Shown here piece after piece: positions 10,690 through 61,801 of a DNA stretch of 64,000 nucleotides (position 1 is its first letter; each line of letters starts with the position of its first letter). A model generated the notes under the pieces. The model was given only the letters and a program-made list of their open reading frames with translations. It ran no database searches and was not told the DNA's origin. Source of the DNA: an uncultured Candidatus Saccharibacteria bacterium (lineage in GTDB: Bacteria > Patescibacteriota > Minisyncoccia > Phycocordibacterales > Phycocordibacteraceae); contig CAYOCH010000002.1 in the NCBI GenBank assembly GCA_964402535.1, positions 6,661 through 70,660 on the forward strand. Reading direction: 5' to 3'. Made by a program: the position numbers and the translations under genes.

Positions 10690-10716
10690 ATATATAGTGT
10701 ACCGTGCTGTGTTTCA

Positions 10717-26457: not shown

Positions 26458-27510
26458 ATGGCCAAGTTTTCGAAAAGCACCCTTTTCTCTAGCGACATCG
26501 CGATCGACCTTGGCACCGCCAACACGCTCGTCTACGTGCGCGGCAAGGGCGTCGTGATCAACGAGCCCTCGGTCGTCGCGGTCAACGACAAGACGCACCA
26601 GGTCGTCGCGGTCGGCAAAGAGGCCAAGACGATGCTCGGCAAGACGCCGGCGCACATCCGCGTCGTGCGCCCCCTCTCGCACGGCGTCATCTCTGACTTC
26701 GAGGTGACGGAGGAGCTCCTCACGTACCTGATCACCAAGGCGCAGAGCGGGCGCACGCGCCTCTTCGGCCCGCGGGTCGTGATCGGCGTGCCGACCGGCG
26801 TCACGAACGTGCAGAGCCGCGCGGTGCGCGACGCAGCAAAGACGGCGGGCGCGCGCGAGGCGTTCATCATGGAGGAGCCGGTCGCCGGCGCGATCGGCTC
26901 CAAGCTGCCGGTCTTCGACGCGGTCGGGACGATGGTGCTCGACATCGGCGGTGGTACGACCGACATCGCGGTGATCGCCTTGAAGGGCGTCGTCGCCTCC
27001 AAGAGCTCGCACGTGGCGGGTGACCGATTCAACGAGAACATCATCGACTTCGTCCGAAGCGAGTTCAAGCTCGGCATCGGCGAGCGCACGGCAGAGGATG
27101 TCAAGATCGCGATCGGCGCGGTGATGCCGCTCAATGAGCCGCTCTCGCGCACGGTGCGCGGTCGCGACTACGCGACCGGGTTGCCGCGCGAGATCACTCT
27201 CACGGACGCGCATATCCGCGAGGCTATCGCGCCCTCGCTCGACACTTTGCTCGACACGATGAAGGAGGTGATCGAGGCGACGCCGGCCGAGCTCCTCTCT
27301 GACGTGCTGCAGCACGGCGTGACCGTTTTCGGTGGCGGGGCGCTCCTGCGCGGGTTGCCGCAGATCCTCGCCAAGATGCTCGGCGTGCCGGTACGCGTCG
27401 CGCCCGACCCGCTCACCTCAGTCGTGCGCGGTGCCGGCATCGTGACCGAGAATCCAGAGCCCTACGCAGACTTTTTCATCGATGAAGAGGACATCCTTAG
27501 CGAGGCGTAA
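26458..27510 (+). CDS. mreB: rod-shape protein MreB, copy 2 (heads mreBCD-PBP2 cluster)
   Basis: AIDLGTANTLVYV…VLDIGGGTTDIAVIAL…TVFGGGALLRGL. Confidence 0.85.
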   Translation: MAKFSKSTLFSSDIAIDLGTANTLVYVRGKGVVINEPSVVAVNDKTHQVVAVGKEAKTMLGKTPAHIRVVRPLSHGVISDFEVTEELLTYLITKAQSGRTRLFGPRVVIGVPTGVTNVQSRAVRDAAKTAGAREAFIMEEPVAGAIGSKLPVFDAVGTMVLDIGGGTTDIAVIALKGVVASKSSHVAGDRFNENIIDFVRSEFKLGIGERTAEDVKIAIGAVMPLNEPLSRTVRGRDYATGLPREITLTDAHIREAIAPSLDTLLDTMKEVIEATPAELLSDVLQHGVTVFGGGALLRGLPQILAKMLGVPVRVAPDPLTSVVRGAGIVTENPEPYADFFIDEEDILSEA

Positions 27511-39049: not shown

Positions 39050-40105
39050 ATGGACGCGCTCACCATCCTCCTTATTGTCGCGGCGCTCGTCATCATCAAC
39101 CTCGTCGCGCTCGTGGTCATCTATGGGCGGATCAAGAAGCCGGCAGAGGAGGGGAGCGGCCTTGTCTTGCTGCAGCAGCAGATGCAGGAGCTCTCGCGCA
39201 CGCTCGACGCGCGCGTGTCAGAGTCGACCCGCATCGCTGCAGAGAACGCGCATCGCCAGTTCAGCGAGAGCAACAAGCTGATCAAAGAGATCACCACCGA
39301 GCTCACCTCGGTCAAGGAGATCGGCCGACAGACCCAGACCTATGCCGAGCAGCTACAGTCGCTCCAGGACCTCTTGAAGAACCCGAAGCAGCGCGGCATC
39401 CTCGGCGAGTACTATCTCGAGACCACGCTTAAGAACGTGCTCCCGCCCGGCATGTACCAGATCCAGTACCCCTTCAAGAACGGCGAGATCGTCGATGCAG
39501 CCGTATTCGTGAACGAAAAGGTCGTGCCGGTGGACTCCAAGTTCTCGCTCGACAACTACAACCGTTTCGTCTCGACGCCGGTCGGCTCGGCCGAGCGCGC
39601 CGCCGCCGAGAAGGCGTTCGTGAACGACCTGAAGCTCCGTATCCAAGAGACAGCCAAGTATATCCGGCCGGAGGAGGACACCATGGACTTCGCGTTCATG
39701 TTCATCCCGAGCGAGGGCATCTACTACGACCTCCTGACCAACCAAGTAGGCGGGGGAGAGGAGGAGAACCTGATCCAGCGCGCCGCGAGCAAGTATAAGG
39801 TCATTATCGTCTCGCCGACCTCGTTCTTGGCCTACCTCCAGACCGTGCTCCAGGGCTTGAAGGCGCTCGAGATCGAGAAGAGGGCTGAAGAGATCCAGAA
39901 GCGGGTGGGGGAGCTGACCAAGCACATCGAGGCGACCAATACCTTCTATATGAAGCTCGGCAACGCGCTCGGGACGGTCGTCTCTCACTACAATGCCGGC
40001 CACAAAGAGCTCGCCAAGATAGACAAGGACGTCTACCGCATCGCCGGGAACAAGGTCGGCGTCGAGCCCGAGCTCCTCGACAAGCCGGCTGCGGGAGACG
40101 AGTAG
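39050..40105 (+). CDS. rmuC: DNA recombination protein RmuC
   Basis: TATAAT box at 39037; N-terminal TM, long coiled coil, then a conserved RmuC C-terminal domain (…DFAFMFIPSEGIYYDLL…). Confidence 0.8.
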   Translation: MDALTILLIVAALVIINLVALVVIYGRIKKPAEEGSGLVLLQQQMQELSRTLDARVSESTRIAAENAHRQFSESNKLIKEITTELTSVKEIGRQTQTYAEQLQSLQDLLKNPKQRGILGEYYLETTLKNVLPPGMYQIQYPFKNGEIVDAAVFVNEKVVPVDSKFSLDNYNRFVSTPVGSAERAAAEKAFVNDLKLRIQETAKYIRPEEDTMDFAFMFIPSEGIYYDLLTNQVGGGEEENLIQRAASKYKVIIVSPTSFLAYLQTVLQGLKALEIEKRAEEIQKRVGELTKHIEATNTFYMKLGNALGTVVSHYNAGHKELAKIDKDVYRIAGNKVGVEPELLDKPAAGDE

Positions 40106-40877
40106 ATTACGAAAGTCAGACTCTCGTAAATCGTGTACTATGTGATGAATGCGCGTTGAGCCGTACGGCATCGATTCTATTGTCCACGCGATGAAGCGTG
40201 GTGCGCGTGGCTTGCCCATTACTCGTGATCTAGCGGATCAATGGAGATTCGTCCGGTTACTCTATTTTGCGAATGATGAGTACAAGGACGACTCATGGGA
40301 GCGAGAGACGGACGGGCTAGGTATGTTTGGTAGGCCGGACACATGGCCCGAACGCGTTCCGCTCGTCAAGATTCTCGGCTGGGTGCTCATGCCGAATCAT
40401 TTTCATCTGTTGCTTCGGGAAAGTCGCGAGCGTGGTATCTCGAAGTTCATGCAGAAACTGTGCGGCAGCATGACTGCGCATTTCAATTTGAAATATGAAG
40501 AGAGGGGAAGCCTGTTCCAAGGCGCGTATAAAGGGCGCACAATAGATAGTGATGTATACCTGCGGCATATAGGACCGTACATCATGGTGAAGAACGTGTT
40601 CGAACTCTACCCGGGCGGGTATGAGCGAGCCGTCAGCGAATTCGATACGGCATGGGAATGGGCGGTCGAGACGTACCGGTTCTCGAGTTTGGCGGATTAC
40701 GCTGCTGGTCGTAACTCGCCGATTATCGATAAGGATGTACTAGGAGGGCTGTTCCCGTCCCCAAGCGATTTCCGTGAGTACGCGAAGCAGGCCGTCCTTA
40801 GCCGGACTACCGAGTCCTTAGACGAGTTTCGCAGATTGGTTCTAGAATAGTTTACGAAAGTCAGACTCTCGTAAATT
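40106..40877 (+). mobile_element. IS200/IS605-like (RAYT-like) element: Y1 transposase flanked by 26-nt imperfect-palindrome direct repeats
   Basis: aTTACGAAAGTCAGACTCTCGTAAAT at 40106-40131 and tTTACGAAAGTCAGACTCTCGTAAAT at 40851-40877, each right after a TAG stop, bracketing the transposase ORF. Confidence 0.6.
40149..40850 (+). CDS. IS200-like Y1 (HuH) transposase / REP-associated tyrosine transposase
   Basis: HuH motif MPNHFHLLL, downstream Tyr-containing region (…YLRHIGPYIMVKN…); homologous to 60319..61038. Confidence 0.7.
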   Translation: MRVEPYGIDSIVHAMKRGARGLPITRDLADQWRFVRLLYFANDEYKDDSWERETDGLGMFGRPDTWPERVPLVKILGWVLMPNHFHLLLRESRERGISKFMQKLCGSMTAHFNLKYEERGSLFQGAYKGRTIDSDVYLRHIGPYIMVKNVFELYPGGYERAVSEFDTAWEWAVETYRFSSLADYAAGRNSPIIDKDVLGGLFPSPSDFREYAKQAVLSRTTESLDEFRRLVLE

Positions 40878-40933
40878 GAGCCGAGGCGAGCGGGGTTGCC
40901 TTTTAGGGGGAGAAATGCTAGATTGCAGGGACT

Positions 40934-41251
40934 ATGGAAGTGGCCGTGATCAAGACCGGTGGCAAGCAGTATGTCGTCTCAAAGGGCGACACTATCGCTA
41001 TTGAGAAGCTCCCGGGCGATCTTAAGAAGGGTGACACGGTTGTCTTTGGCGAGGTGCTCCTCGTCGACAACGGCTCGGACACGACCATCGGCGCGCCGGT
41101 TATCAAGGGCGCGGAGGTCAAGGGCACTGTTGTTCTCGCCGGGAAGGCGAAGAAGGTCGAGGTGGTGAAGTACAAGCCGAAGAGCCGCTATTTCAAGCGC
41201 AACGGCCACCGCCAGCCGGTCCTCAAAGTCAAAATTGATTCGATAGCGTAA
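40934..41251 (+). CDS. rplU: 50S ribosomal protein L21
   Basis: MEVAVIKTGGKQYVVSKGDTIAIEKL…KVEVVKYKPKSRYFKRNGHRQ. Confidence 0.9.
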   Translation: MEVAVIKTGGKQYVVSKGDTIAIEKLPGDLKKGDTVVFGEVLLVDNGSDTTIGAPVIKGAEVKGTVVLAGKAKKVEVVKYKPKSRYFKRNGHRQPVLKVKIDSIA

Positions 41252-42805: not shown

Positions 42806-42823
42806 TCTGCAGACCAAAGAGAA

Positions 42824-42851
42824 AAAGAGGCGGAGAAATCCGCCTCTTTTG
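42824..42851 (+). terminator. intrinsic terminator after the helicase gene
   Basis: agaggcgg-agaaat-ccgcctct followed by TTTT. Confidence 0.6.
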
Positions 42852-43262
42852 CATTGTATATACGGCATATCTTGTCTCGTCGAGACGAGATAGCAAGATG
42901 ATACGCGGGTGGATGATAGTAGGCGTGTACGAATGCTGCGATCGTAGCTGTGAGGTGGTCTTGAGCATGGACAGTGCCGGCATGCGGAGGCAAATCTCGG
43001 AGAATCTCCGTGGAACCACGATGACTGTTGATGCTGGTGTCTTGAGGCTCAAAATTCGCGTATGAGGGGGGGTCACATTTTGCGCACTTTTGGCCGCAGC
43101 AAATGGAGCGAGTCGGTGGCTCGATATCTTGCAGATCAAACTTTGAGCTACCTGAGACAGTCGATGCCATCCGAAAATTTTGCTTGAAAAGTTATCCACT
43201 CATAAAGATGCAATGAACTGGAAATAATCAGTTAGTATCTGATTAGTTCCACTCTTGTACGG

Positions 43263-46200
43263 ATGAAATCGAAGCGCGAAACGAAGGGCCTCATCTCCAC
43301 CCGCTACGCCGGAAAAATTTCGGGCTATACGTCTGCCTACTTGCGCCGCCTCGCACGCTCCGGTGAGATCGAGGGTGTGCAGGTCGGCCGCGTGTGGATG
43401 ATCCGCCAGGCCTCTCTGATTCGCTTTCTCGACGAGCAGGCCAAGCGCAAGGAGGAGCTCTCCAAGGAGCGCGCCCGCGTCCACGCCGAGGAGTACCTCT
43501 CACACCAGGCGCCGGTGAAGCGCGTAGTCGCCAAGATCGCGAAGCCGATCCCGGTCAAGAACGTCGACGTCGAGGGGCTCGTCTCGAGCTCGCGCTCGCT
43601 CGTGGTCACGGTCGTCGTGGCGCTCGTCGCTGGCACGATCGCAGCACAAGGTCTCACGCCGACGCTCACAAGGATCGCTGCGCAGCCGGCGGCGGCACTC
43701 AACGCCGGCGAGCAGATCGCCGTTGCGACCTACGAGACGATCCACGGCCTCTTCACCTCGACGACGAGTGCGCTTGCCGACCTCTTCGCTCCGGCGCCGA
43801 CGATCGTGGTACCGGCTCCGCAGATCCGCGTGAACAAGCCGCCGCTCGCAGTCGCGTCATCATCACCGACGCAGACCAAACCGAAGCAGGTCGCTATCGC
43901 TCCGATTCTCCCGGCTCCGTACAAGGAGCCGGCACCCGTTTCGTACCCGACCTACGTCACGACCATCAACGGCGTCTCGCAGAGCTATGTCGATGCCGCG
44001 GTCTCCGCGATGCGGAGCGGAATCCTCGCCACCGTCTCGGGGATGCTCGCGCCGGTCGCGCAGCAGACCGTCGTCAATCAGACGACCATCCAGCAGGTCA
44101 ACATGATCCAGCGGCTCGGCGGCCTGATCGTCGACAACGGCCAGTTCAACGGCGGCACGTTCGACAAGGGGACGATGACGAACGGCATCGCCGTGAATGC
44201 CGAGAATGCGACGTTCACGAATCTCTCGGCGGGCAACGTGAACCTGGGCGCATCGAACCTCGCGACGACGACCGTCTCGGGCGATCTCACGCTCTCGGGC
44301 GTCTTGTCGGCGAACACGAAGGCTGTCGCGCCCTACTTCGTCGCCACCGCCTCGAACGCCACCAGCACCTTTGCCGGCGGCCTTGCGGTCGGCACGCAGC
44401 GTCTCGTGGTCGACTCGACCACCGGCCGCGTCGGCATCGGCACGACCTCGCCAGCACAGACACTCGAGGTCTCGAGCGCCGGCGACTGGAGCGGCATCAA
44501 CATCACGACGACCGCCGCGGGCAACCACCAGGCGATCTCCTTCAATCACCCGGAGGGCTATCCCTTCCAGATCTTCACGAGCTACACCGGCGGGCGACCT
44601 GACACGCAGTTCTACGTCGGGAGCAGCGGGACGGTCTTCATGTCGAGCAACAAGTTGGCAGTGAACGGCGGGGCGATCCCGTCGGCATCTGAGGCAGCAC
44701 TCTCGGTCGTGCCGGTAGGCACTGAGCCTGGCTTGAACGTCAAGAATAACGTTAACGGCTCATCGTCGCTCTTGGTGACGAATCTCGGCAAGGTGGGTCT
44801 CGCTTCTACGACTCCCTGGGCGCAGCTCTCGGTGAACCCGAACGGCATCACGGGCCCCGCATTCGCGATCGGCAGCTCGACCGCCACCAACTTCGTCGTG
44901 ACGAACGGCGGGCAGGTGGGTATCGGGACGACAAGTCCGGCATACACGTTTGATGTTACCGGTAGTGCGCGGATGGATAACCTCGCAGTGTCACAGAGCG
45001 GCGGCTTCCGCGCTGTCACGGGCAGCTGGGCCGGATCGCCGAGCGGCGACAACCTGAGCTGGCTCGCATTCGGTTGGGCTGACAATACGAAATACCATCG
45101 TATCCGCACGTGCGGGTTCTCGAACGATAACTTGTGCTTCGATTTGATCAATCCGTCGACGCACTACCTCTCGATCACCGGGCAGCTGAACTCGGTCTAC
45201 GGTGCGACGATCGGCTATGCCGCGGGTACTGCCGGACCGACAAACGGCCTTGCCGTGAGCGGCTCGACAGGCATCGGCACCACCTCTCCGTGGGCGCAGC
45301 TCTCGGTTAACCCGAACGGGATCACTGGCCCCGCATTCGCAATCGGCTCCTCGACCGCCACGAACTTCGTCGTGACGAATGGGGGGAATGTCGGGATCGG
45401 GACTACTTCGCCGCAAAGCACGTTTGTCGTCAATGGCACGTCCCAGTTTACGAATAATGCTGTGTTCAATGCGCAGATCAGCGTCAGTCAGATTACCTCG
45501 CCGAATAACTTGTTGATTGCTGCAGGCGGACCACTGGTGCAGATTGCGGGTCACCTAGTGCCGCAAGTTACCGGTACATATGATTTGGGTTCTGCGAGTG
45601 CCGGATGGAGAAACGTGTATGTAACCGGGAACGTCGGCATCGGCACCACCTCGCCAAGCGCGACACTCGCAGTGCAGGGCAACGGCCTTTTCTCGGGCAA
45701 TCTCACCGCCTCGGGCAATACCTATATAGGTGCGACATCGGCGAACACCCTCACGGTGAACGCGCTCGTTAACTCTGACATCACGCCGAGCACGAACGCG
45801 GTCAACTCGCTCGGCTCGCCGAGCTTCTATTGGAAGAATGTCTACGCCGCGAACGTGATCGCCAACAACATCAGCGCCGCCTCGACCACGATCGCGGGCA
45901 CGGCCTCGGCCACCTTCACGATCAACTCGGGCAACGCGACGGCCGACACGCTCGACTCCTCACTCGTCTTCTTCCGCGGGACCGTCGTCCCGAACGCCGT
46001 TCTCGGTTGGGACTCGACCAACAAGCGCTTCACGATGAATCAGCCGCTCTTTATCCAGAACGCGTCGAATAACGGCGGCGGCGTGATCTCGCTCGCGGTA
46101 CAAGGGCTCGCTGGCCAGACCGCCGACGTCCTCCGCATCGCCTCCTCGACCGGCACGAGCTACTTGAACGTGACTGCGGGCGGGAATGTGGGGATCGGGA

Positions 46201-49200
46201 CGGCGAATCCGGGAAGCCTCTTCACCGTCTCTGGAGGGTCATCTGGTGAGCAGCAGGTGGCTTTGTTCACGAGTACCGGTTCAGCTAATACGAAGATCGC
46301 GATCGAAAATGCTGCGGTCGGCGGTCACAGGTGGGAATTGAGGTCAACATCGACCGGCACCTTCGATATCGTCGACAGAACCGCGCCTGCTCAGCGCTTC
46401 GTCATAGACACCGCCGGTAACGTCGGCATCGGCACGACCTCGCCGTGGGCGCAGCTCTCGGTGAACCCGAACGGGGTTACGGGCCCCGCGTTCGCAATCG
46501 GCAGCTCGACCGCCACGAACTTCGTCGTGACGAACGGCGGGCAGGTGGGTATCGGGACGACGAATCCGCAGCAGGCGCTGCATATCAGTACGACGAATAC
46601 GTATCAGGGCATCTTCTTGAACGGCAACGCAGCGCCCTCGATCGGGTTCGCCGGCTGGAGCGGGCTGACGCCCGCGTGGAAGGTGGGCATCAGCGGGTCG
46701 GCAGGGAGCAACTTGGCTATCAGCACCGGAGCGGCGAACGCCGACCTCTTCAACTTCACGACCGCGGGCAATCTCGGCATCGGGACGACCTCGCCGTGGG
46801 CGCAGCTCTCGGTGAACCCGAACGGGGTTACGGGCCCCGCCTTCGCGATCGGCTCCTCGACCGCGACGAACTTCGTCGTGACGAACGGCGGGCAGGTGGG
46901 GATCGGCACAAGCAATCCGACGCTCGGGACGGGCTCGACGACCCTCGAAGTCTACGGCAACGGCGGCGGCTTCACCCAGTACGGCTCGCTGTCTCTCGCC
47001 AACACTACGAACTCCGGCAGCTCCTATTCAGGCTCGGTCGACTACTACGGCGCTACCACGTTGTACGGCCAGATTCGCACGCACGTGATCACCGGCGGCC
47101 CGAGCGGTATGTCCCAGATCGAATTGTCGGCGCTGAATGGCGGCGCGCTGAATCAGGTGTTCACGGTCGGTGGCACCGGCAGCGTGACGGTCGGCACCGC
47201 AAACGGTGTGTCGAGCGGGTATCTTGGCGTCTACAACTCGGCCGGATACGGGCAGACGAATACCGGCATCATCTTGGGCAACATGCAGACGGGCGCCGGC
47301 TCGAATATCGGGGTCAACTTCGTCGACTACGCGCAGAACAACATCGCGCAGATCCTCGGCGTGTATCCGGGCGGCACCAAGGCCGGCAGCCTCGCGTTCT
47401 CGACCGGGAACGGCACGAGCCTGAACGAAGCGATGCGCATCACGAGCGCCGGCAATATCGGCATCGGTACCTCGACTCCCGCAGAGAAACTGGACGTCGC
47501 CGGGCGGCTCTCGATCGAGGATATCTCGGGCAATCCGCCGTCGGCGGCTCGGTCGTCATTTGTCTTCGAGAGCAATACGGACCCTCTCAATACGTCCGTC
47601 TCGGCGCTCTACGTGTATCCGAGGACCGACACCTCTAAGCGCTTCTATTTCGGCACGACGACGCACCAGTTCTATGCCGTCGACTTCTCGAACGTCTTGA
47701 GCATCACGGGTGTGACCAGTATCCAAGGCGCTCCCAACACGCAGGCGATCGATTTTTCATCGGCTGCGTATGACACGACCTACGGCACGGCGACGTTCGA
47801 CTTCAAGCCCACGGTCGATAACACCCGGCCGGTCGTGCTGCGCAACTCGCGCGTCACCGACAGCGCGACCTCGGTCGGCTTCGTGCTGAAGACGGTCAAT
47901 ACGCTCTCGAACGCATCGGCGAAGCTCCTGACGCTCGACAACAACACGACGAACCTTCTGACCGTCATGGCGAACGGCAATGTCGGCATCGGGACCACTT
48001 CTCCATTCGCTGACCTTTCGATTGGCGGGGCGAGCAACGGGACTAACCCGCTCTTCGCGGTCTCGACCTCGACTGCGAGCGCGACCTCGACCGCCTTCAT
48101 CATCGACAAGAACGGGAATGTCGGCATCGGGACGGCGAACCCGGGCCAGGCGCTCACGGTGAATGGCGAGATCAGCCTCTTGGGCGCATCTGGCTCGTCG
48201 CGCGGGCTCTTGGGCGCGCCGACATGGGACAACTCATACGTCTCGCTCCAGAACGGGTCGTTGAGTGAGAGCGCCGCGAACTCGGCGATCAACCAAAACA
48301 GCCTCGGTGACACGATCGTGAACGCCGCGACCGGCAGGGCGCTCCACCTGCGCGTCGGCAACACCGAGCAGATGAGCTTTAACGGCACCATCGCCGCATT
48401 CCAGAACGTGAACGTCGGCATCGGGACCACGAGCCCGGCAGACAATCTCGACGTATACGCGCCGAACAACGCGGGATTGGCGAAGATTGGACTGATAAGG
48501 GGCGATGGAGCGGGGTATCTGACGCAATGGACCTATGGCCCGGCGGGGAACGGATTCCTCGAGATCGGCGAGAACGAGGCGTTCAACAGCTCCGGCTCGG
48601 CGCGGGTACAGTTCAATACCGGAGCGCCGTCGTGGTTCCAGCAGTTCAACACCAACGTCGACAGCTATCAGATCGCACGCATCCCGGCGGGCGGCAGCAC
48701 GGCAAACGTGATGCTCTATATACAGAGTAACGGCAACGTCGGCATCGGCACCACCTCTCCCTCGCAGGCGCTCTCTGTGCAGGGCAATGGCCTCTTCTCG
48801 GGCAACATCACGGCAGCGAACATCACGGCGACTGGGACGGTGACTGCCGCGAATTTCTCCGGCCCAGGTGTAGATCCGCAAGGATATGGCAACTACTTGT
48901 CGATAAATCCTGCGACTCAGGATCTCAAATTCTCACGCGGCGGCTACTGGCTCAATTTCAATTTGACCAACAACACGCCTGTCATCACATCACAGAACAA
49001 TCTATTAGCCCTGCCTGGTATCACAGCGACATCCTCTGTATTTACGGGATACTCCGCGCAGCAAGATGTGAGTCGCTCAACGATCCTCTCGCTCACGCGG
49101 CAGAATACCGGCGCCCGCTTTCAACAAGCAGCAAACTTCATAATGGGCGGCTACGATTCGGCACAAACTGCGCATACGCAATTGGATATCGCCCTCACGA

Positions 49201-52200
49201 ACACCGCGACAAACGGCGTCCCAGACGCGACCGTGATGAGCCTCTTGGGCAACGGCAACGTCGGCATCGGTTCGACCACGCCTGCCGCGACGCTCGCGGT
49301 GCAGGGCAACGGCCTCTTCTCGGGCAACATCACAGCCGCGAACATCACTGCGACTGGGACGCTCTCGACAACCGGCGCGATCTCGGCACCGTACTTCGTC
49401 GCGACGAACGCGCTCGCAACGAGCACGTTTGCAGGCGGCATCACGGGGCCGGGCAGCTTTGCGGTGCAGCAGACGACTGGCTATGTCGGCATCGGGACGA
49501 CGTCGCCGACGAGTGCACTCTATGTCGCGGGCAATGGCCTCACATCAAGCGTTATCACGGCTGACGGAGGCGCGAACTCTATATTCGGCCTCACCGTGCG
49601 GGGCTATCAGAACTGGGGCTCGGGTGTCGCCTACACCAACCAGACTGCAAACCGTACCTACGTCACGTATCAGGACACGACAGGTAATTTCAATATCTAC
49701 GACAGCACGGTGGGGAATCGGGTCACGGTGACTTCTACCGGCAGCGTCGGCATCGGCACCACGACTCCGTTCTATAAGCTTGAGGTGAACGGCACGGTCG
49801 AGGTCGCGAACGGGAGCGGTCTTTATGCGCTCTCGTCGAGCGGCACGCACTACCGGCTCGTGGACCTCGACGCGAGCAACGTCGTGAACATGGGCCCCAA
49901 CGGCTCGATCCAGATCGCGAACGGCGCGCCCTCGAGCGCGATCTTCGTGCAGAACACTGGCTCGGTCGGGATAGGCACGAATAGCCCTCAAGTGGCGCTG
50001 CATGTAGGGCCGACGGCAGCCGGCGCGAATGAGGTCGCAAGATTCGAACATGCGAACGCTGCGGGTTCATCCGGCATCACGATCTATCAGAATGGGACAC
50101 TAAAGGGCTCTCTCGGTACTGGCGACTTCGTGGCGACTGGGGGAGCCAACACAGACTTCGGCATCCAGTCTGCTGGCAACATGCTGTTCGCTACTGGCGG
50201 TACTGTCCAAAAAATGGTGCTGACATCAGGCGGCAATGTCGGCATCGGGTCGACCTCGCCCACGAGCCTCTTGAGCGTCTATGGCGCGGCGGGGGCGGCC
50301 ACCGTCACGATCGGCTCGCCCTCGAACTCTGCGCTCTTGACGCTCGATCGCGGCTCGAACACGCAGAACGCGACCTTTAACCTCAACACCGCGGGCGTGA
50401 ATTACGGCTACTTCGGCCTCGACACGAGCGCCAACTCGGTGACGCTCGCCTCGTCGAACAACAACCAGCTCACGGTCTCAGCGCACAACGCAAACCTCCT
50501 CCTGCGCGGCGGCACGAGCAACGGCATCATCATGCAGACCAACGGCAGCGCCGAGGCGATGCGCGTCACAAGCGGCGGCAACGTCGGCATCGGGTCGTCG
50601 ACGCCAAGCGCTGTCCTCGCGGTGTCGAACACGGCCGCGACCGCCGCCAACACGCCGCTCTTCACGATCGCTTCGACGACGGGCGGCACCTCCACGTCAA
50701 GCTTGATGACCGTTCTCGCGAACGGCAACGTCGGGATAGGTACGAGCAATCCGACCTCGCCGCTGTATGTATCGGGTGCGCCTGCGTTGCAGGCGGTCAT
50801 CGGCACGACGGCGAACACGCAGAACTGGATCTCTATCATCAAGTCGAGCAGTCAGACTGCGAGCTTCGGCATCCGCGCCAATAACTACGGCTTCCTCCAG
50901 GCGAACACCGGGATGCAGATCGAGAACTCGTCGTCGCAACCCTATATCGTGTTTGACGGGGTGAACGAAGGGATCGGCACCACGTCGCCATCTGCGACGC
51001 TCGCAGTGCAGGGCAATGGCCTCTTCTCGGGCAACATCACGGCTGCGAACATCACCGCGACGGGGACGCTCTCGACCACAGGAGCGATCTCGGCGCCCTA
51101 CTTCGTCGCGACGTCGCCGACCGCGACCTCAACCTTCGCGGGCGGCGCGACGTTCGCGACGAGCGGCGGCAACGTCGGTATCGGGACAGCGAATCCAGGC
51201 TACGCACTCGACGTCGCCGGTCTTGCGGGCATCAATGGGCGAGTGAAGCTTGGCGCCGGCAACGATCAGGTGGACATTGCGAACGGTGGCCTCGTGCTAC
51301 ATGACAGCGGCACAACTGCATATGTCGAGGCGCAGAATTCTAACAAGCCGCTCGTTCTCGGTACCAGTAACGCGGATATTCAATTCACTACAGGATTCGG
51401 CGTCACAGAGCTGATGAGGATCAAAGCGAACGGGAATGTGGGGATCGGCACGTCGACGCCCGCGGCTACGCTCGCGGTCGCGATGGCGAGCACAACACCG
51501 GCCTTCTATATCGGCGCGGCAGGGAGCTCGTCGCCCGCCTTCTATGTCGGCAGCGCGAACGGGAGCGGGCTCGTGGGTATCGGCACCTCGGCACCCGACC
51601 ATCCGCTCCAGATCACCGGCAACCCGCTACTCACGAGCGCGGTCGTGCGTGTGGGCGCCGTCGCGCAGAACGTCTCTGCATTGCGCGTGAAGGGCTACTT
51701 CAACGGCTTGAACGGCAATGAGGATGCCGGCGGCGTGAACGTCTACAACTACAACTCGGCCACGGTGCAGGCGACGCTCGGCGGCGACAGCGGCCTCTTC
51801 GCCTCGCCGCGCGGCACCAACCTCGTCGCGGCGATCGTCCGCGGCCTCACCGGCCAGACAGCCAATCTGCAAGAGTGGCAGGATGTGAACGGCAATCCGC
51901 TCTCTGTGATTACGAGCAGCGGCAACCTCGGCGTGGGCACCTCCTCGCCCGCGCAGGCGCTCTCGGTCGCGGGGACGGGCTACTTTGCGACGAATGTCGG
52001 CATCGGCGTGGCGAACCCGGGCGTATATAGCCTTATGGTGCAGGCGCCGACGATCGGCGGCCAAGTCTTCGGCGTCACTACGAATTATGGCAACAGCGGC
52101 AAGTTCGAAGTCAGCTTCAACAGCGGCAACGACCCGTTCGCTCACTTGACTACTAAGCAGGGTGGACAGATCGCCTACTACGACATGTACGACTCGGTCG

Positions 52201-54920
52201 GCAAGGCGATGCAGCTTGGTCAGACATTCGGCAACGGGATCAACCTCTCGGCCTCGACGAGCATCCAGATCGGCATCGACTCGAACAATCTCGGCACCGG
52301 CATGTTCGAGATCGCAAGAGGGAACACCTGGAACGGTCGCGCGGGCGTCGACGGCACCTCGCTCTTCAAGATCCTCAACAACGGCAACGTCGGCATCAGC
52401 AACACGAATCCCTCAACCCTCCTCGACGTGAACGGCACGACCACGCTGCGCAACCAGGTGTCGGTGAATGGGGCGAGCTTCTACGACAACACCGGCAAGA
52501 TCGGGCTCGGGGTCAAGATGACGAGCGACCTCAAGACTGCGCTCTATGTCACTGACAACTTTGCGGCGATGAGCGCGATCAATGGCGCATACATCTCATC
52601 GGTCATATACGGCGCCAATACGCAGCAAGGGAAGAACGCGTACTATGGAGCCATCAATGACCCGACGCTCTCGGTGAATATCCAAAACGGTTCCGGGTTC
52701 GTGAGCTATCTCAATAACACCAACAACACCGGCACCAACATCAATCACGGCGGTCTCTTCTATCAGAATCAGACTATGAATGTGGCCAACACCGGAACCG
52801 ATTATGGCTACACCTCGTACAACTACATGCAGAGCAGCGGCAACCCGACCTCGCTTGCGAATTATGTCGGCTTCTACTCTCGCGGGCAATTCGCGGTCGC
52901 GCCGGCGACGACGACCAACCAGTACGACTTCTATGCCGACAACTTCGTGGGGACAGGTAACGGCGCGGTCGTGAACCGCTACGGCGTCTATATCGGCTTC
53001 AACAGCACCGGCATCACGAACCCCTACGGCATCTATCAAGCGAGCCCGACTGTCCAGAACTACTTCGGCGGCAACGTGGGGATCGGCACCACGACGCCCC
53101 TCGCGAAGCTCGCAGTTCTCGGCACGGCAGAGCAGCTCCGTCTCAACTACGACGCGACGAACTACGCGAGCTTCACGGTGAGCAGCGCCGGCACGCTCAC
53201 TATTGCCCCCACGTCGAACGTAATGAATATCTCGGCGACGACACTGAATACGAATACGATCAACGTCGCCACCGGCAACGTCATCAATTTCAACGGGGTA
53301 GGCTACCTCCGCAGCCTGGGCGGCGTGTTTAACATCAATGACACCAACACGAACAACATCCTTCTCGCCAATGGTGGCGGCAACGTCGGCATCGGCACGT
53401 CGACACCTCAAAACAAGCTGACGATCGTCGGCGGGATCGGCACGTTCGTTAACACCAACTCCTCCTACCGAACCGACTGGGATGCCGGCTATATGATCAA
53501 CGACAAGCTTGCGATATCGAAGTACGGCGCAATTGGCCAGCTCTCGATCGACGCACAGGGTCAGTTCGGTTCGGTAATGGTCGGAAATATCGGCAACTAT
53601 GTGAGCAATTTGCTTGTGAGCGGCAACGTGGGGATCGGGACCACGACGCCTGGGAAGAAGTTGGTTATAGATAGCGGCTCGAATGGCAATAGCTTTGCGG
53701 CAAGCTTCAGCAATGGTGGAGCGGGCAGACCATATTGGCTGTATAATTTCCAGCAGCAGAATGTGCAGTGGACTTCTGGATTCGACATTGGAGGGAATAC
53801 AAACGACTTCTCCATCAGCAATACGTACTCTGGAACCCGAGATGTTTTCCACATCGAAAACACGGCGCCTGCGAATAGTTTTAGAATCCAAGCAAATACT
53901 GGCAATATCGGTATCGGTACGACGAGCCCTTCGACCCTCTTACACCTCTACTCGGCGAGTGCGCCATCGATAACGATTGAGTCGTCTGCTGCTGGCGGCG
54001 GCGCGACCGATAGGCGTCTCACCATCAATCAGAACAATGGAGGTACGGCGACACTCACCGCGATGGAGGATGAGAACAGCTCAACTCAGGCGGCGTTCAT
54101 CATCAACGCGACTAACAATCCGAGCAACGCCGCGCTCGCGATTCGGCCCATATTCGATCTGCAGAACGGCGGCAACAGCAAGCTCTTCGTCACAGCCGCA
54201 GGCAATGTCGGCATCGGCAGTACGTCGCCGAATACGAAACTTGTTGTCTCTGACAACAGCGGCCAGACGCTCATCGGCAGCATGGCCGCTTCGTACGGAT
54301 CCATCGGTTTCCAGCCGACCCTCACCACGTCCAATTTCGCGCTCGCCGGCAACACATCTGAAACGATACTTAATACGCTCGCGGGCACGTCGCTCAAGTT
54401 CCGCGTAGCGAACGCAGACAAGATGGTTATGGACCAAAACGGCAATGTCGGCATCGGCACCACGACACCTAGCAATAAGCTGACCGTCGCAGGCGGAGCA
54501 GACTTCGGTACGGCATACAGCCCGACTGGACAGACGATACGTCTAGCGCCGAGCGGAACGTTTTCAGAAGCGGATGTCATTTCTCAAGCGGTAGGATTGT
54601 CGATCTTCGCTAATCCGCAGGCCACAGCGCAGCCGTCATGGATCGACCCGCTTATGAGTCTCCCGAACGGGGCAGGACTGATGTCGACGACGGGAGTCGA
54701 TCTGATTTTGTCCGCGTCATCTCATGCTGGCGGCGGCGTCACGATCGCCGGATATCATAACGGCGCTGCACATGACATCAAGTTCTTCAACGACGGCAAC
54801 GAACAGATGCGCCTCACGACCGCTGGTAATCTCGGCATCGGGACCTCGACGCCGGGCGCGACGATGAACGTCTACTCGGGCGCCGGGACGCCGTGGAATA
54901 CCTACCCATCAGGCACCTGA
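43263..54920 (+). CDS. giant membrane-anchored repeat protein (3885 aa): N-terminal excisionase-type HTH + TM anchor + tail-fibre-like 'GNVGIGTTSP' repeat region
   Basis: N-terminal …LISTRYAGKISGYTSAYLRRLARSGEIEGVQVGRVWMIRQASLIRFL (HTH_17-like). TM helix SLVVTVVVALVAGTIAAQGL. Then ~3700 aa of Gly/Thr/Ser/Asn-rich modules with recurrent GNVGIGTTSP(W/S)A…L(S/A)V and APYFVAT…ATSTFAGG motifs. Ends at TGA, in frame with the next ORF. Confidence 0.8.
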   Translation: MKSKRETKGLISTRYAGKISGYTSAYLRRLARSGEIEGVQVGRVWMIRQASLIRFLDEQAKRKEELSKERARVHAEEYLSHQAPVKRVVAKIAKPIPVKNVDVEGLVSSSRSLVVTVVVALVAGTIAAQGLTPTLTRIAAQPAAALNAGEQIAVATYETIHGLFTSTTSALADLFAPAPTIVVPAPQIRVNKPPLAVASSSPTQTKPKQVAIAPILPAPYKEPAPVSYPTYVTTINGVSQSYVDAAVSAMRSGILATVSGMLAPVAQQTVVNQTTIQQVNMIQRLGGLIVDNGQFNGGTFDKGTMTNGIAVNAENATFTNLSAGNVNLGASNLATTTVSGDLTLSGVLSANTKAVAPYFVATASNATSTFAGGLAVGTQRLVVDSTTGRVGIGTTSPAQTLEVSSAGDWSGINITTTAAGNHQAISFNHPEGYPFQIFTSYTGGRPDTQFYVGSSGTVFMSSNKLAVNGGAIPSASEAALSVVPVGTEPGLNVKNNVNGSSSLLVTNLGKVGLASTTPWAQLSVNPNGITGPAFAIGSSTATNFVVTNGGQVGIGTTSPAYTFDVTGSARMDNLAVSQSGGFRAVTGSWAGSPSGDNLSWLAFGWADNTKYHRIRTCGFSNDNLCFDLINPSTHYLSITGQLNSVYGATIGYAAGTAGPTNGLAVSGSTGIGTTSPWAQLSVNPNGITGPAFAIGSSTATNFVVTNGGNVGIGTTSPQSTFVVNGTSQFTNNAVFNAQISVSQITSPNNLLIAAGGPLVQIAGHLVPQVTGTYDLGSASAGWRNVYVTGNVGIGTTSPSATLAVQGNGLFSGNLTASGNTYIGATSANTLTVNALVNSDITPSTNAVNSLGSPSFYWKNVYAANVIANNISAASTTIAGTASATFTINSGNATADTLDSSLVFFRGTVVPNAVLGWDSTNKRFTMNQPLFIQNASNNGGGVISLAVQGLAGQTADVLRIASSTGTSYLNVTAGGNVGIGTANPGSLFTVSGGSSGEQQVALFTSTGSANTKIAIENAAVGGHRWELRSTSTGTFDIVDRTAPAQRFVIDTAGNVGIGTTSPWAQLSVNPNGVTGPAFAIGSSTATNFVVTNGGQVGIGTTNPQQALHISTTNTYQGIFLNGNAAPSIGFAGWSGLTPAWKVGISGSAGSNLAISTGAANADLFNFTTAGNLGIGTTSPWAQLSVNPNGVTGPAFAIGSSTATNFVVTNGGQVGIGTSNPTLGTGSTTLEVYGNGGGFTQYGSLSLANTTNSGSSYSGSVDYYGATTLYGQIRTHVITGGPSGMSQIELSALNGGALNQVFTVGGTGSVTVGTANGVSSGYLGVYNSAGYGQTNTGIILGNMQTGAGSNIGVNFVDYAQNNIAQILGVYPGGTKAGSLAFSTGNGTSLNEAMRITSAGNIGIGTSTPAEKLDVAGRLSIEDISGNPPSAARSSFVFESNTDPLNTSVSALYVYPRTDTSKRFYFGTTTHQFYAVDFSNVLSITGVTSIQGAPNTQAIDFSSAAYDTTYGTATFDFKPTVDNTRPVVLRNSRVTDSATSVGFVLKTVNTLSNASAKLLTLDNNTTNLLTVMANGNVGIGTTSPFADLSIGGASNGTNPLFAVSTSTASATSTAFIIDKNGNVGIGTANPGQALTVNGEISLLGASGSSRGLLGAPTWDNSYVSLQNGSLSESAANSAINQNSLGDTIVNAATGRALHLRVGNTEQMSFNGTIAAFQNVNVGIGTTSPADNLDVYAPNNAGLAKIGLIRGDGAGYLTQWTYGPAGNGFLEIGENEAFNSSGSARVQFNTGAPSWFQQFNTNVDSYQIARIPAGGSTANVMLYIQSNGNVGIGTTSPSQALSVQGNGLFSGNITAANITATGTVTAANFSGPGVDPQGYGNYLSINPATQDLKFSRGGYWLNFNLTNNTPVITSQNNLLALPGITATSSVFTGYSAQQDVSRSTILSLTRQNTGARFQQAANFIMGGYDSAQTAHTQLDIALTNTATNGVPDATVMSLLGNGNVGIGSTTPAATLAVQGNGLFSGNITAANITATGTLSTTGAISAPYFVATNALATSTFAGGITGPGSFAVQQTTGYVGIGTTSPTSALYVAGNGLTSSVITADGGANSIFGLTVRGYQNWGSGVAYTNQTANRTYVTYQDTTGNFNIYDSTVGNRVTVTSTGSVGIGTTTPFYKLEVNGTVEVANGSGLYALSSSGTHYRLVDLDASNVVNMGPNGSIQIANGAPSSAIFVQNTGSVGIGTNSPQVALHVGPTAAGANEVARFEHANAAGSSGITIYQNGTLKGSLGTGDFVATGGANTDFGIQSAGNMLFATGGTVQKMVLTSGGNVGIGSTSPTSLLSVYGAAGAATVTIGSPSNSALLTLDRGSNTQNATFNLNTAGVNYGYFGLDTSANSVTLASSNNNQLTVSAHNANLLLRGGTSNGIIMQTNGSAEAMRVTSGGNVGIGSSTPSAVLAVSNTAATAANTPLFTIASTTGGTSTSSLMTVLANGNVGIGTSNPTSPLYVSGAPALQAVIGTTANTQNWISIIKSSSQTASFGIRANNYGFLQANTGMQIENSSSQPYIVFDGVNEGIGTTSPSATLAVQGNGLFSGNITAANITATGTLSTTGAISAPYFVATSPTATSTFAGGATFATSGGNVGIGTANPGYALDVAGLAGINGRVKLGAGNDQVDIANGGLVLHDSGTTAYVEAQNSNKPLVLGTSNADIQFTTGFGVTELMRIKANGNVGIGTSTPAATLAVAMASTTPAFYIGAAGSSSPAFYVGSANGSGLVGIGTSAPDHPLQITGNPLLTSAVVRVGAVAQNVSALRVKGYFNGLNGNEDAGGVNVYNYNSATVQATLGGDSGLFASPRGTNLVAAIVRGLTGQTANLQEWQDVNGNPLSVITSSGNLGVGTSSPAQALSVAGTGYFATNVGIGVANPGVYSLMVQAPTIGGQVFGVTTNYGNSGKFEVSFNSGNDPFAHLTTKQGGQIAYYDMYDSVGKAMQLGQTFGNGINLSASTSIQIGIDSNNLGTGMFEIARGNTWNGRAGVDGTSLFKILNNGNVGISNTNPSTLLDVNGTTTLRNQVSVNGASFYDNTGKIGLGVKMTSDLKTALYVTDNFAAMSAINGAYISSVIYGANTQQGKNAYYGAINDPTLSVNIQNGSGFVSYLNNTNNTGTNINHGGLFYQNQTMNVANTGTDYGYTSYNYMQSSGNPTSLANYVGFYSRGQFAVAPATTTNQYDFYADNFVGTGNGAVVNRYGVYIGFNSTGITNPYGIYQASPTVQNYFGGNVGIGTTTPLAKLAVLGTAEQLRLNYDATNYASFTVSSAGTLTIAPTSNVMNISATTLNTNTINVATGNVINFNGVGYLRSLGGVFNINDTNTNNILLANGGGNVGIGTSTPQNKLTIVGGIGTFVNTNSSYRTDWDAGYMINDKLAISKYGAIGQLSIDAQGQFGSVMVGNIGNYVSNLLVSGNVGIGTTTPGKKLVIDSGSNGNSFAASFSNGGAGRPYWLYNFQQQNVQWTSGFDIGGNTNDFSISNTYSGTRDVFHIENTAPANSFRIQANTGNIGIGTTSPSTLLHLYSASAPSITIESSAAGGGATDRRLTINQNNGGTATLTAMEDENSSTQAAFIINATNNPSNAALAIRPIFDLQNGGNSKLFVTAAGNVGIGSTSPNTKLVVSDNSGQTLIGSMAASYGSIGFQPTLTTSNFALAGNTSETILNTLAGTSLKFRVANADKMVMDQNGNVGIGTTTPSNKLTVAGGADFGTAYSPTGQTIRLAPSGTFSEADVISQAVGLSIFANPQATAQPSWIDPLMSLPNGAGLMSTTGVDLILSASSHAGGGVTIAGYHNGAAHDIKFFNDGNEQMRLTTAGNLGIGTSTPGATMNVYSGAGTPWNTYPSGT
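44817..46920 (+). repeat. intragenic near-identical ~125-nt DNA repeats (family A: WAQLSVNPNG(I/V)TGPAFAIGSSTATNFVVTNGG(Q/N)VGIGT)
   Basis: Copies at ~44817, 45291, 46446 and 46797 (>90% nt identity between the last two), plus a fifth in the second ORF at ~56484. Confidence 0.7.
45652..51150 (+). repeat. intragenic ~75-150-nt repeats (family B: ATLAVQGNGLFSGNITAANITATGTLSTTGAISAPYFVAT…ATSTFAGG)
   Basis: Copies at ~45652, 48760, 49283 and 50993; the 49283 and 50993 copies are >90% identical over ~150 nt. Confidence 0.7.
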
Positions 54921-54968
54921 GCTGCGATCGTCAACCAGTCGCAGAACATTAGCGGCGGCAACGGCCTC

Positions 54969-57900
54969 GTGGTGGTCAACAAGTATCTCTCGGCCAACTC
55001 GACCACCTTCGAGGTTGGGACGATCAACGACAGCAACGGCGTCTACGCCTCATCGCTCAAGATCACGGGCGACAACGCGGTCCGCGTGCCGCTCACGCTC
55101 CAGCTCGGCAACTCGGGCGGCAACGTGACCAGTCTGCAGCTCGGCGCCAACACCTCGGTCGCGAGCGGCGCCGTGATCGCGAATATCTATAACGCCAGCA
55201 ATAATCCGGGCATCACGGTCGGTACGAGCCGCACCGACGGCACCGCCTTCACGGTCGCAAACGGGATCACTTATGACGCGAACAAGGTGCCGAACTCGGG
55301 CGGCACCGCGCTCCTCACCGTGCTCGGCGGCGGCAATGTTGGCGTGGGCACCACCTCGCCGTATGCGCTCCTCGCCCTCTCGAACTCAGTGTCGACGCCC
55401 GCTAACACGCCGTTCTTCACGATCTCGAGCACAACCGGCGGCACCTCTACCTCGACCCTCATGACCGTGCTCGCGAACGGGTACGTGGGCATCGGGACGG
55501 CGAGTCCGGGACGATTCCTGGATGTGGTGGCGAGTACCACTGCCGGGACAGAAATCGCGCGATTCACCAACACGCCTGTAAGCAATCGGTATATCTCTGT
55601 CCGCACGGTGGGCGCGTCTGATTTCGGCGGTGCGTACATCGGCGGGCCGATGTTGGACAGCAGTGATCCCCAGGTCATTTTCGGCAAGAATCTGTTACTG
55701 CCAAGTAACGGTGCGAATATAGCATTGGCTCAATCCAGCTTGACGAGTTCGTCTGCCGGGGGAACGGTGCTGACGAGCGGCGGATCGACGGCCCAAGCCG
55801 GGACAACTATCCAGCTGGGGAATAGCTCGACTTTCCAAGGGAATCTGTACGTTAAAGATGGGTCGGGGAACACGGTGATGACAGTCCAACCGACAGGTAA
55901 TGTCGGTATTGGTGCCACCGCACCAACCTCGCCCTTGACGGTCGTGACGCCCTCACTGTGGGGCAATGGGGCAGCAGGCGAGAATCTAGGCGTGACGGTC
56001 AACCCGTCGGCCAACGGCACGCTCTATGGGCTTTTTAACCTGACAAGTGTCACGGCCACGACCACGACCGGCAACGCGGCCGTCGTCGGCTCTCAGAACA
56101 CGGTGACGGCCACCAATAACAACGGCGGCAACACCACGCTCACCGCCGTCTCTGGGACGACGAACAACACCGGCGGTGGGAGCGCAAGCCAGATGACCGG
56201 CTTCTTTACGAATCCGGCGGTCTATAACACCGGTTCGTCGGTGAGCTCGCTCTATAACTTCTACGCAAACGACGTCTATCTCGGCAACGGCACCTCGCAG
56301 CCCTTCGGCTCGGTCAACAAGCTCTACGGCTATTATGTCGGTGCGCTCCAGAGCGCCTCGACCAACTACGGCCTCTTCTTCGCCAACAACCCGAACGGCG
56401 GCTCGATCGCCTCGGCCGCCTCGACCAACATCTCGATCCTGCCCGGCTCGGGCGGGAGCGTGGGGATCGGCACCACATCGCCGTGGGCACAACTTTCGGT
56501 CAACCCGAACGGGATCGCGGGCCCCGCCTTCGCGATCGGCTCCTCGACCGCGACGAACTTCGTCGTGACGAACGGCGGGAATGTGGGGATCAACACGGTT
56601 AACGCGACGAACGCTCTCACGTTCGGCGCGACAGGCGGCTATGAGATCTCGACGGAGCCGAACAATGCAAACGACCTCAACATCACGACGAACGCGACGA
56701 ACGGCGGCGGGATCTCTCTCGGTGCAAGAAACTCGAACAAATCGATCTATGTGAGTATCGGGGGTGGAGTCGGTATCGGCACGACCTCGCCGCGCGCCGC
56801 TCTTGAGATCGGCGGCAGCGCGAACCCGTCCGTCTACCTCAACTCGCAATATTCAACGCCGAGCACGATGCAGTGGTATATCCCGAACATCGCGACGATG
56901 TCGCTCGTCGCAAATGCGGTCGGGAACGAAAACGCAAACGCGCAGTGGGTCATGGACATGGGCTCTAGTGACGGCCTTACAGATTCTTTTGGCGTACTCC
57001 GCGCTAGTACCGTGGGTTCCACCCGCGTGCCGTTCTTCGTGGTGAACAACAACGGCAACACCGGCATCGGCACCACGACGCCGGGCGGCGACCTCTCGAT
57101 CGCAGGCAGCGCCGGCGGCACCAACCCGCTCTTCCTCATCTCTTCGAGTACCTCGGGCTACGCGACCTCGACCGCGTTCATGGTCGACAGTTACGGCAGC
57201 CTTGGCATCGGTCGGGTGCCGAACGCGCAGCTCTCAGTGGCTGGCGACGCCTATATCGGTACTGGCGCAGGCTCCTTCACCTTCACCTCCAACTACAACT
57301 TCAACGCACAAGGCACCAACTTCGGCCCGAGCCTCAACATCTCTGATGGCGATGCGACAAACCGCTGGGCCTCACTGCGCCTATCGACGGCGGGCGGTCA
57401 ATGGGAGATGGCCGACATGGGCGGGAACCTCGGATTCCTCCGCGGCTCGAACAATCGCGTAGTGATCGGTCGCTCCGATAGCAGCAATGCGAACCTGAAC
57501 GTCTACAACGACGCCAACACCATCCTCTTCACGGTTCAGCCGACGGGCTACGTCGGTATCGGTCCGAGCAACCCAGTTAATCAGCTCGACATCGGCATCG
57601 GGCCGTTCGCAACCGCCAAGACGGCCAACTTCAGCACCCTCAACATCGCGAACACGGCGACCTCCTCGTCGTCGTTCACGAAGACCGGCATGCAGATCTC
57701 ATCGACCGGCGCGTGGACAGGCCCGAACTACGGCCTCTATGTCTCGGCGGTCTCGGGCGGCACCAACAACTACGACGCGATCTTCAACGGCGGCGGCAAC
57801 GTCGGTATCGGCACCACGACGCCTTCGGATCTCTTGTCACTCGCTTCAACTAATCCGAGAATCGACCTGTTTGACACGAATGTTTCGGGTCCGGCGCGTG

Positions 57901-60281: not shown

Positions 60282-60295
60282 CGATACTCTGCTCT

Positions 60296-61039: not shown

Positions 61040-61115
61040 CAGATGACCTCCCAGTGGACAACGAAGACGAACTATGGCACAGTGATTCCTGTCATAGTCC
61101 TTTGGGAGAGAAGTC

Positions 61116-61754: not shown

Positions 61755-61774
61755 ATGAGAGCGCAGACTTCGCA

Positions 61775-61798
61775 ACGGGTCCTACGGGACCCGTTTTT
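61775..61798. terminator. bidirectional intrinsic terminator
   Basis: acgggtcc-tac-gggacccgt followed by TTTTT, between convergent HDOD(+) and recR(-). Confidence 0.6.
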
Positions 61799-61801
61799 CA
61801 T

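Follow-up and report, generated by a model that had tools for sequence, protein, structure and literature searches.

A probable REPtron/TIRtron-like unit, a Y1 HUH gene between two copies of a palindrome, in a Candidatus Saccharibacteria genome

Insertion sequences (ISs) of the IS200/IS605 group occur in many near-identical copies and insert next to a fixed tetra- or pentanucleotide, for which a sequence at the hairpin foot serves as guide. In the REPtron of Escherichia coli, a repetitive extragenic palindrome (REP)-associated tyrosine transposase (RAYT), TnpA_REP (YafM; PDB 4ER8), stands together with flanking REPs or bacterial interspersed mosaic elements (BIMEs) (Nunvar 2010; Ton-Hoang 2012; Messing 2012; Bertels & Rainey 2011). 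TnpA_Y1 subclass 2.1 corresponds to group 1 of Bertels (PMC6006769) and to the TIRYT/TIRtron of Di Nocera et al. 2013 (PMC3733652). TIRtrons are RAYT-like genes with inverted-repeat flanks; some of these repeats are self-complementary, the repeats share a GGGGWSAS motif, and dispersed copies are few or absent (PMC3733652). What RAYTs do for their hosts is unsettled, and for the largest class, subclass 2.1/group 1, no REP-like structures were found (Quentin et al. 2018, PMC6006769). Patescibacteria are not among the taxa in the distribution table of that study (PMC6006769), and our literature search retrieved no paper linking RAYT/IS200-type genes with the candidate phyla radiation (CPR)/Patescibacteria. 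Here we describe a Y1 transposase gene and its flanking palindromes in a 64,000-nt stretch (the window) of contig CAYOCH010000002.1 from an uncultured Candidatus Saccharibacteria bacterium (GCA_964402535.1), a member of the Patescibacteria. We read it as a REPtron/TIRtron-like unit, that is, a RAYT-type Y1 HUH gene (class 2, subclass-2.1-like) with a copy of its own 23-25-nt palindrome on either side, and give this reading a probability of about 0.62.

The Y1 gene occupies positions 40149-40850 of the plus strand and encodes 233 aa, including the MPNHFHLLL stretch that a first-pass annotation of this DNA had pointed out. That annotation also placed identical repeats on both sides of the gene; the exact repeat is real, but it is 25 nt long and had been drawn one base too wide at each end. 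The 25-mer TTACGAAAGTCAGACTCTCGTAAAT lies at 40107-40131 and again at 40852-40876, both times on the plus strand, as a direct repeat. We found no third match with up to 3 mismatches in the 64-kb window, and 100 shuffles gave 0 matches for the repeat. The identical run measures 25 nt; counting the TAG in front of it extends the match to 29 nt, one of them a mismatch. As first described, each copy follows a TAG stop and is an imperfect palindrome: the stops of rmuC (40103-40105) and of the Y1 open reading frame (ORF) (40848-40850) lie one base 5' of the respective repeats, and each copy is an odd palindrome with arms of 11-12 nt, a central A and one A.C mismatch. The left copy, TTACGAAAGTC-A-GACTCTCGTAA, has 11-nt arms, and the right copy, in the same orientation, has 12-nt arms counting T40851 and A40875. 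The Logan assembly of SRR5161805 matches 5534 bp of the region, including both repeat copies, with zero mismatches. Rfam gave no match at E <= 1 in 39900-41100, and no target duplication beyond the hairpins was seen in the window. An intrinsic terminator was considered and rejected, since the hairpins have no T-run and received no terminator call.

The protein scores 32.5 bits against the Pfam family Y1_Tnp (PF01797; cut-off 23), the alignment covering profile positions 41-119 only, which are the C-terminal two-thirds. All 26 sequences compared share H84, H86, Y144 and N149, and the HUH motif reads H-F-H. The catalytic Tyr, on which the first-pass annotation made its reading depend, is present as Y144, within PYIMVKNV, and an exact hairpin copy beyond the two in the window, which it proposed to look for, was found elsewhere (see below). 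An AlphaFold2 (AF2) model (pLDDT 89.8) consists of a Y1 core with the Tyr on helix 135-151 and a helical C-terminal domain of ~80 aa. With Foldseek, the best PDB match of this model was 4er8, a complex of E. coli TnpA_REP with a REP hairpin, and the next were TnpA of IS608 and ISDra2 (2a6m, 2xm3); a sequence search of PDB returned ISDra2 TnpA as the sole match (E 0.04). Among 5.8 billion clusters, 1673 homologs were found at E <= 1e-3, and the best ones listed are full-length proteins of ~233 aa with 55-76% identity, the named ones coming from metagenome-assembled genomes (MAGs) of Patescibacteria (Kaiser-, Taylor- and Adlerbacteria). The best non-self homolog is 76% identical when the same locus in the Logan assembly is set aside. 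A profile search of 1.84 billion representatives yielded 442 clusters (50% identity) at E <= 1e-30. Judged by eye against Table 1 of PMC6006769, the protein shows the subclass 2.1 traits NHFH, LFQG and FSSL(180). It resembles that subclass in length (median 238 aa there), in NH[YF]H, in FQ in place of WQ/WE and in the C-terminal SS motif, and differs from it in a Y motif that is one residue longer (YIMVKN[VP]).

The palindromes are a property of the whole family. Our sample comprised 80 loci from GTDB Patescibacteria genomes and several metagenome loci. Matching flank repeats (score >= 15) accompanied 73 of 78 family genes versus 9 of 556 other genes at the same loci, and palindromes with arms of at least 7 nt were present on both sides in 71 of 81 loci. 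The left palindrome is centred at a median of 30 nt 5' of the ATG and the right one at a median of 14 nt 3' of the stop. In 1.1 Mb of loci, 131 of 169 GTCNGAC palindromes adjoin a Y1 gene, as compared with 4-46 for control cores. Stems vary by locus around a conserved tip, AAGTCNGACTT, with the centre A-A/G-G-T-C-N-G-A-C-T/C-T; more than 5 positions from the centre, no conserved base was detected, either in the hairpins (73 upstream, 78 downstream) or in a gap-free alignment of 62 sequences, and no conserved tetranucleotide was detected at the hairpin foot of the family loci. In that alignment, compensatory changes were observed at 10 of 11 stem pairs, and the covariation score was 0.748 versus 0.21 for shuffles and 0.12-0.20 for slid partners and controls. 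The aligned sequences had been picked as palindromes, so the percentage of paired positions is biased, whereas the variety of pair types is unbiased. The first-pass annotation took the TTAC that begins the repeat for an IS608-type target or cleavage site. TTAC forms stem positions 1-4, in the outer stem, and these columns covary in 61 relatives (TTGC, CCCG, TGGG and others), using AU, UA, CG and GC pairs; we therefore rejected this idea. Its broader comparison, with IS200/IS605 ends or REP-RAYT units, holds as regards the hairpin-gene-hairpin order, which is family-wide, and the closest fold, which is that of TnpA_REP, but not as regards the copy number and protein type of IS200.

Stem identity tracks protein identity only above ~60%. 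The two copies at one gene stay near identical although stems diverge, which suggests that the copies evolve in concert. Between the two copies of a gene, the central base is the same or flipped with about equal frequency family-wide. In some relatives the repeated module is longer, 46-71 nt (9946-9998 and 10702-10754 in locus L018; also L050 and L090), and runs from the palindrome through a promoter-like stretch nearly to the ATG, so that a promoter-like copy also faces the downstream gene.

The unit is an insertion relative to a related genome, which has an empty site of the kind that the first-pass annotation suggested looking for. In L094 (GCA_018968865.1; RmuC 84% identical), the gene order is YqeY-rmuC-rplU-DEAD-recR-dnaB, and rmuC and rplU are separated by 42 nt without hairpin or Y1 gene, which identifies the hairpin-gene-hairpin segment of ~0.79 kb as the inserted part. 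By comparison with L094 5057-5098, the rplU promoter region resumes at ~40896 of the window; the ~19 nt in between, TGAGCCGAGGCGAGCGGGG at 40877-40895, do not align to the empty site, and within them the right insertion boundary is uncertain. Of the homologs, P0001 is the closest (76%) and occupies the same rmuC/rplU site. Three MAGs, one of them named as Kaiserbacteria and one as Taylorbacteria, have homologs of 67-71% identity 5' of gap-rpiB, and one further homolog follows ilvN, so that the close homologs represent three different contexts. The GC content at third codon positions (GC3) is 0.62 in the unit versus 0.89 in rmuC, which is low for the genome. Across the family, 79% of upstream and 74% of downstream neighbours point the same way as the Y1 gene, as do 65% of flanking coding bases; taken by themselves, these values are uninformative on lagging-strand targeting.

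Two further observations concern the rmuC/rplU site. Four unrelated ORFs, one of them with a weak endonuclease/exonuclease/phosphatase match, occupy the gap in L092 (5062-7125) and L093, both from JGI metagenomes, which points to a recurrent insertion spot in the lineage. In the ortholog L095, an in-frame stretch past the right hairpin (~1465-1520), LGIKPELLEKLVSAIIE*, resembles the RmuC C-terminus, VGVEPELLEKPTTAVD*, with mostly synonymous differences; from the sequence, it might be the displaced original 3' end of rmuC, with weak significance at the nucleotide level (31/500 shuffles).

Palindromes also occur apart from their usual places. An exact orphan copy of the window repeat as a 26-mer was found in an intergenic gap of an unrelated 109-kb metagenome contig (L091 1966-1988, Ga0163155_10000059). 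It lies in a region of GC 0.49 between genes for a helix-turn-helix (HTH) protein and a ParA-like protein, with a fragment of HsdS (type I restriction-modification specificity subunit) and a ParE toxin gene nearby, and no Y1 gene was present in the 3 kb fetched around it. The 25-mer pattern was absent from the GTDB species representatives. In MAG VGJQ01, the hairpins of each of two paralogs were found as orphans on the contig of the other. Eleven genomes carry 2-3 paralogs that are 45-69% identical and have distinct stems; the pair in the window (see below) is 36% identical. Orientation is not fixed: the window has direct copies, whereas L095 has its right hairpin in inverse orientation, asymmetric mismatch included, and relatives at the gap locus have inverted doublets resembling REPINs (REP doublets). 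The copies share no sequence outside the palindrome. Orphan hairpins that bound accessory genes (L014/L007, and L091 with ParE, ParA and HsdS) bring a "cassette array" to mind, but these cases are anecdotes only. Away from any Y1 gene, L073 (1379-1509) contains three GTCNGAC palindromes with different stems and L011 (7409-7452) a GTCNGAC inverted doublet, both of BIME/REPIN-like appearance.

Palindromes were even found in frame inside Y1 genes, at L041 10181-10203 (+13 aa), L052 6133-6151 (+11 aa), L062 3766-3784 and L015 10554-10574. The core AAGTCNGACTT is then translated as K-S-D-L/F or S-Q-T-F, depending on the frame, and the insertions of L041 and L052 fall in surface loops. The study that defined these subclasses reported in-gene REP insertions for subclass 2.4 only (PMC6006769). 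Those cases, from Cyanobacteria and Bacteroidetes (PMC6006769), are similar in that cognate palindromes lie in frame in surface loops of their own gene; in contrast, most copies described here precede the HuH strand (codons ~45-70) or fall within the C-terminal domain, and the protein is 2.1-like.

The position of the left palindrome suggests a link to expression. A -10-like hexamer, TACTAT, is predicted from the family profile at 40136-40141 on the plus strand, 7 nt before the ATG, with no Shine-Dalgarno (SD) sequence; a consensus promoter scan did not call it. Within -50 to +6 around the ATG, TANNNT occurs at -12/-13 in 50 of 78 family genes and an SD-like motif in 5 of 78. Given this -10 position and the rarity of SD motifs, transcripts of the family appear to be near-leaderless. 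Since the left palindrome takes the -35 position, autorepression is also suggested. G/T was enriched just 5' of the -10 box in the 78 loci, suggestive of an extended -10 element.

In the mechanism that we propose, the palindrome would fold into a hairpin when the DNA becomes single-stranded, for example at a replication fork. The enzyme would read the conserved tip (AAGTC-N-GACTT) and need a paired stem, with Tyr144 cutting and rejoining single-stranded DNA (ssDNA) and His84 and His86 holding the metal. At low frequency, the whole hairpin-gene-hairpin unit may move to a new intergenic site, and a bare palindrome may be copied or flipped, giving orphans, doublets and in-frame gene copies. The same activity could keep the copies at one gene identical (homogenization). 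Because the left palindrome abuts the -10 box, binding of the protein there probably represses its own gene.

In its Y1 HUH fold, for which 4er8 is the best structural match, the unit is like the REPtron. Both consist of a low-copy gene between its own palindromes, with diverged paralogs that each have their own palindrome family, and both show singlet and inverted-doublet (REPIN-like) arrangements. The differences are that the REPtron hairpin has a GT[AG]G foot and the one here a conserved tip, that REPs number in the hundreds per genome and the palindromes here are very few, that the protein has 165 aa and YIHYNP there and 233 aa and Y-x4-N here, and that the hosts are Proteobacteria there and Patescibacteria here. 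From TIRYTs, the unit differs in having true palindromes with a GTCNGAC centre in place of GGGGWSAS.

Several results weigh against a REPtron/TIRtron-like unit. The NCBIfam RAYT equivalog NF047646 scores 32 bits, below its cut-off of 80, and the Y motif of the gene is Y144-x4-N149 (YIMVKNV) rather than Y-x3-NP, the P being present in some relatives only. No GT[AG]G foot was found in the family hairpins (73 upstream, 78 downstream and the 62-sequence alignment). The ssDNA fold of the 25-mer is weak, with energies of -4.4 to -6.4 kcal/mol and z values of -0.6 to -3.2. The empty site of L094 could in principle be a deletion. Above all, the palindromes are scarce. REP-like dispersal, for which the first-pass annotation proposed a search, was not seen on a large scale: the window has just its two copies, the scan of a metagenome collection found one orphan of the window palindrome, and 888 kb around the relatives' genes contained 12 cognate orphans (~1 per 75 kb), all within 4 kb of a gene. 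A high palindrome copy number looks unlikely, and with so few copies in the window, the metagenomes and the relatives, the repetitiveness that defines REPs is not apparent.

We weighed three other explanations. One is an autonomous, active IS of the IS200 group, in which the hairpins would be the left and right ends (LE/RE) and TnpA would excise a top-strand circle and insert it at a short target (peel-and-paste). The unit has ~0.77 kb, a single Y1 gene and similar same-strand hairpins at both ends, and IS200, IS608 and ISDra2 likewise have one Y1 gene between similar subterminal hairpins within 0.7-0.8 kb and a related fold, since the model also matches TnpA of IS608 and ISDra2. Its presence or absence at rmuC/rplU, the different contexts of its homologs and its atypical composition are all to be expected of such an element. 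However, no near-identical gene copies were found in the 5.8 billion clusters or among the paralogs examined (36-69% identical), the best non-self homolog reaching 76%. Whereas TnpA of IS200/IS605 has ~150 aa and Y-x3-Q (Table 1, PMC6006769), the protein here has 233 aa, the class-2-type motif Y144-x4-N149 and a C-terminal domain of ~80 aa. Even deeply diverged orthologs keep to the same locus: the window and P0001 share the site at rmuC, and Kaiser- and Taylorbacteria share the one at gap. The hairpins orient freely, unlike strand-specific IS ends, with no conserved target tetranucleotide in the family loci. Nor were relatives found in IMG/VR viral contigs, and a phage or plasmid vehicle is thus unsupported. 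We consider an active IS unlikely, and a RAYT-like unit fits the locus better than an active IS200/IS608-like element.

It is also conceivable that the palindromes are purely regulatory or structural, as a dimer operator, a barrier to read-through or a 3' mRNA stabilizer, and that the Y1 protein is domesticated and no longer moves DNA. The left palindrome directly 5' of a conserved -10 box in a near-leaderless gene, the right one directly after the stop, the operator-like look of perfect palindromes with a conserved centre and the resemblance of subclass 2.1 tails to HTH domains (PMC6006769) would all suit this explanation. Yet the outer stems covary freely without loss of pairing, which points away from a duplex site recognized by its sequence and towards a folded single strand, and the catalytic residues are invariant. 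The lack of a T-run and of a terminator call speaks against it as well. In addition, orphan, inverted, doublet and in-frame copies require a copying process, and the whole unit is an insertion versus L094, all of which makes a purely regulatory role quite improbable. Least of all do we favor duplication of an attachment (att) site, attL/attR-type, in which a hairpin (terminator) already stood after rmuC and integration of the gene duplicated the TAG and the hairpin. Such an event would explain why the direct repeat in the window reaches into the preceding TAG (29 nt, one mismatch), and the recurrent use of the rmuC/rplU gap and the possible rmuC 3' relic after the L095 element are in line with it. 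But the empty site of L094 has no hairpin, the right copy in L095 is inverted together with its asymmetric mismatch, copies in the family are as often inverted as direct, and the relic match is statistically weak. Since the same conserved tip flanks genes at unrelated sites, the palindrome travels with the gene, and we regard an att-type origin as very improbable.

With a REPtron/TIRtron-like unit as the favored explanation, this large family in the tiny, streamlined genomes of Patescibacteria would represent the barest form of hairpin association, in which each gene has two palindromes whose tip is conserved and whose stems covary freely; the copies change in concert, and orphan or in-frame copies occur occasionally. 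It offers a compact pair of substrate and enzyme for the biochemistry of hairpin recognition, as well as a rule for annotating genes that so far carry no annotation or only the label "transposase". Our finding leaves the general picture of Y1 elements as it was. A bolder and, to our mind, rather doubtful idea is that these units are not decaying transposons but a Patescibacteria-wide domesticated module, in which the Y1 HUH enzyme re-copies one palindrome and keeps the copies at gene borders and in frame identical while stems drift between lineages. Such a module, a palindrome-copying and self-templating system reduced to a minimum, would serve the host, for instance in ssDNA processing at forks or in the insulation of gene boundaries in ~1-Mb genomes, and, if true, the idea would extend hairpin association to the large "REP-less" 2.1/group-1 class of RAYTs.

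The window contains a second RAYT-like unit, spanning 60298-61038. Its gene, at 60319-61008 on the minus strand, is 36% identical to the first and has the motifs NHYH, LFQG, YIHLNP and WSS; by homology, its start is likely MELWH at 60999. YIHLNP is the canonical class-2 motif, and this gene thereby shares Y[IV]HLNP with subclass 2.1. It scores 21.3 bits against Pfam Y1_Tnp, below the cut-off of 23, and is therefore easily overlooked in annotation. A palindrome, ATGAAGGACAT-CGT-ATGTCCTTCAT, at 60298-60322 marks the 3' end of the gene and overlaps its stop codon, and a copy with 1 mismatch lies just upstream of the gene at 61014-61038. A third copy with 2 mismatches, at 60825-60849, is part of the reading frame of the gene (AMRDFVCPSF), ahead of the HUH strand. 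The same three-copy layout, with stems of their own, was found in L028, L032 and L050b.

The second unit belongs to a segment of ~19 kb (42806-61800) that the window has in addition to L094, where the DEAD helicase gene directly precedes recR. This segment also contains a 227-aa ORF without Pfam match and two giant ORFs, at 43263-54920 (3885 aa) and 54969-60281 (1770 aa), rich in repeats of the GNVGIGTTSP type. Elsewhere in the window, and unrelated to the Y1 unit, two ORF starts at 21131-21228 and 26485-26582 share a 98-nt stretch of 79% identity, suggesting that the two ORFs are paralogs.

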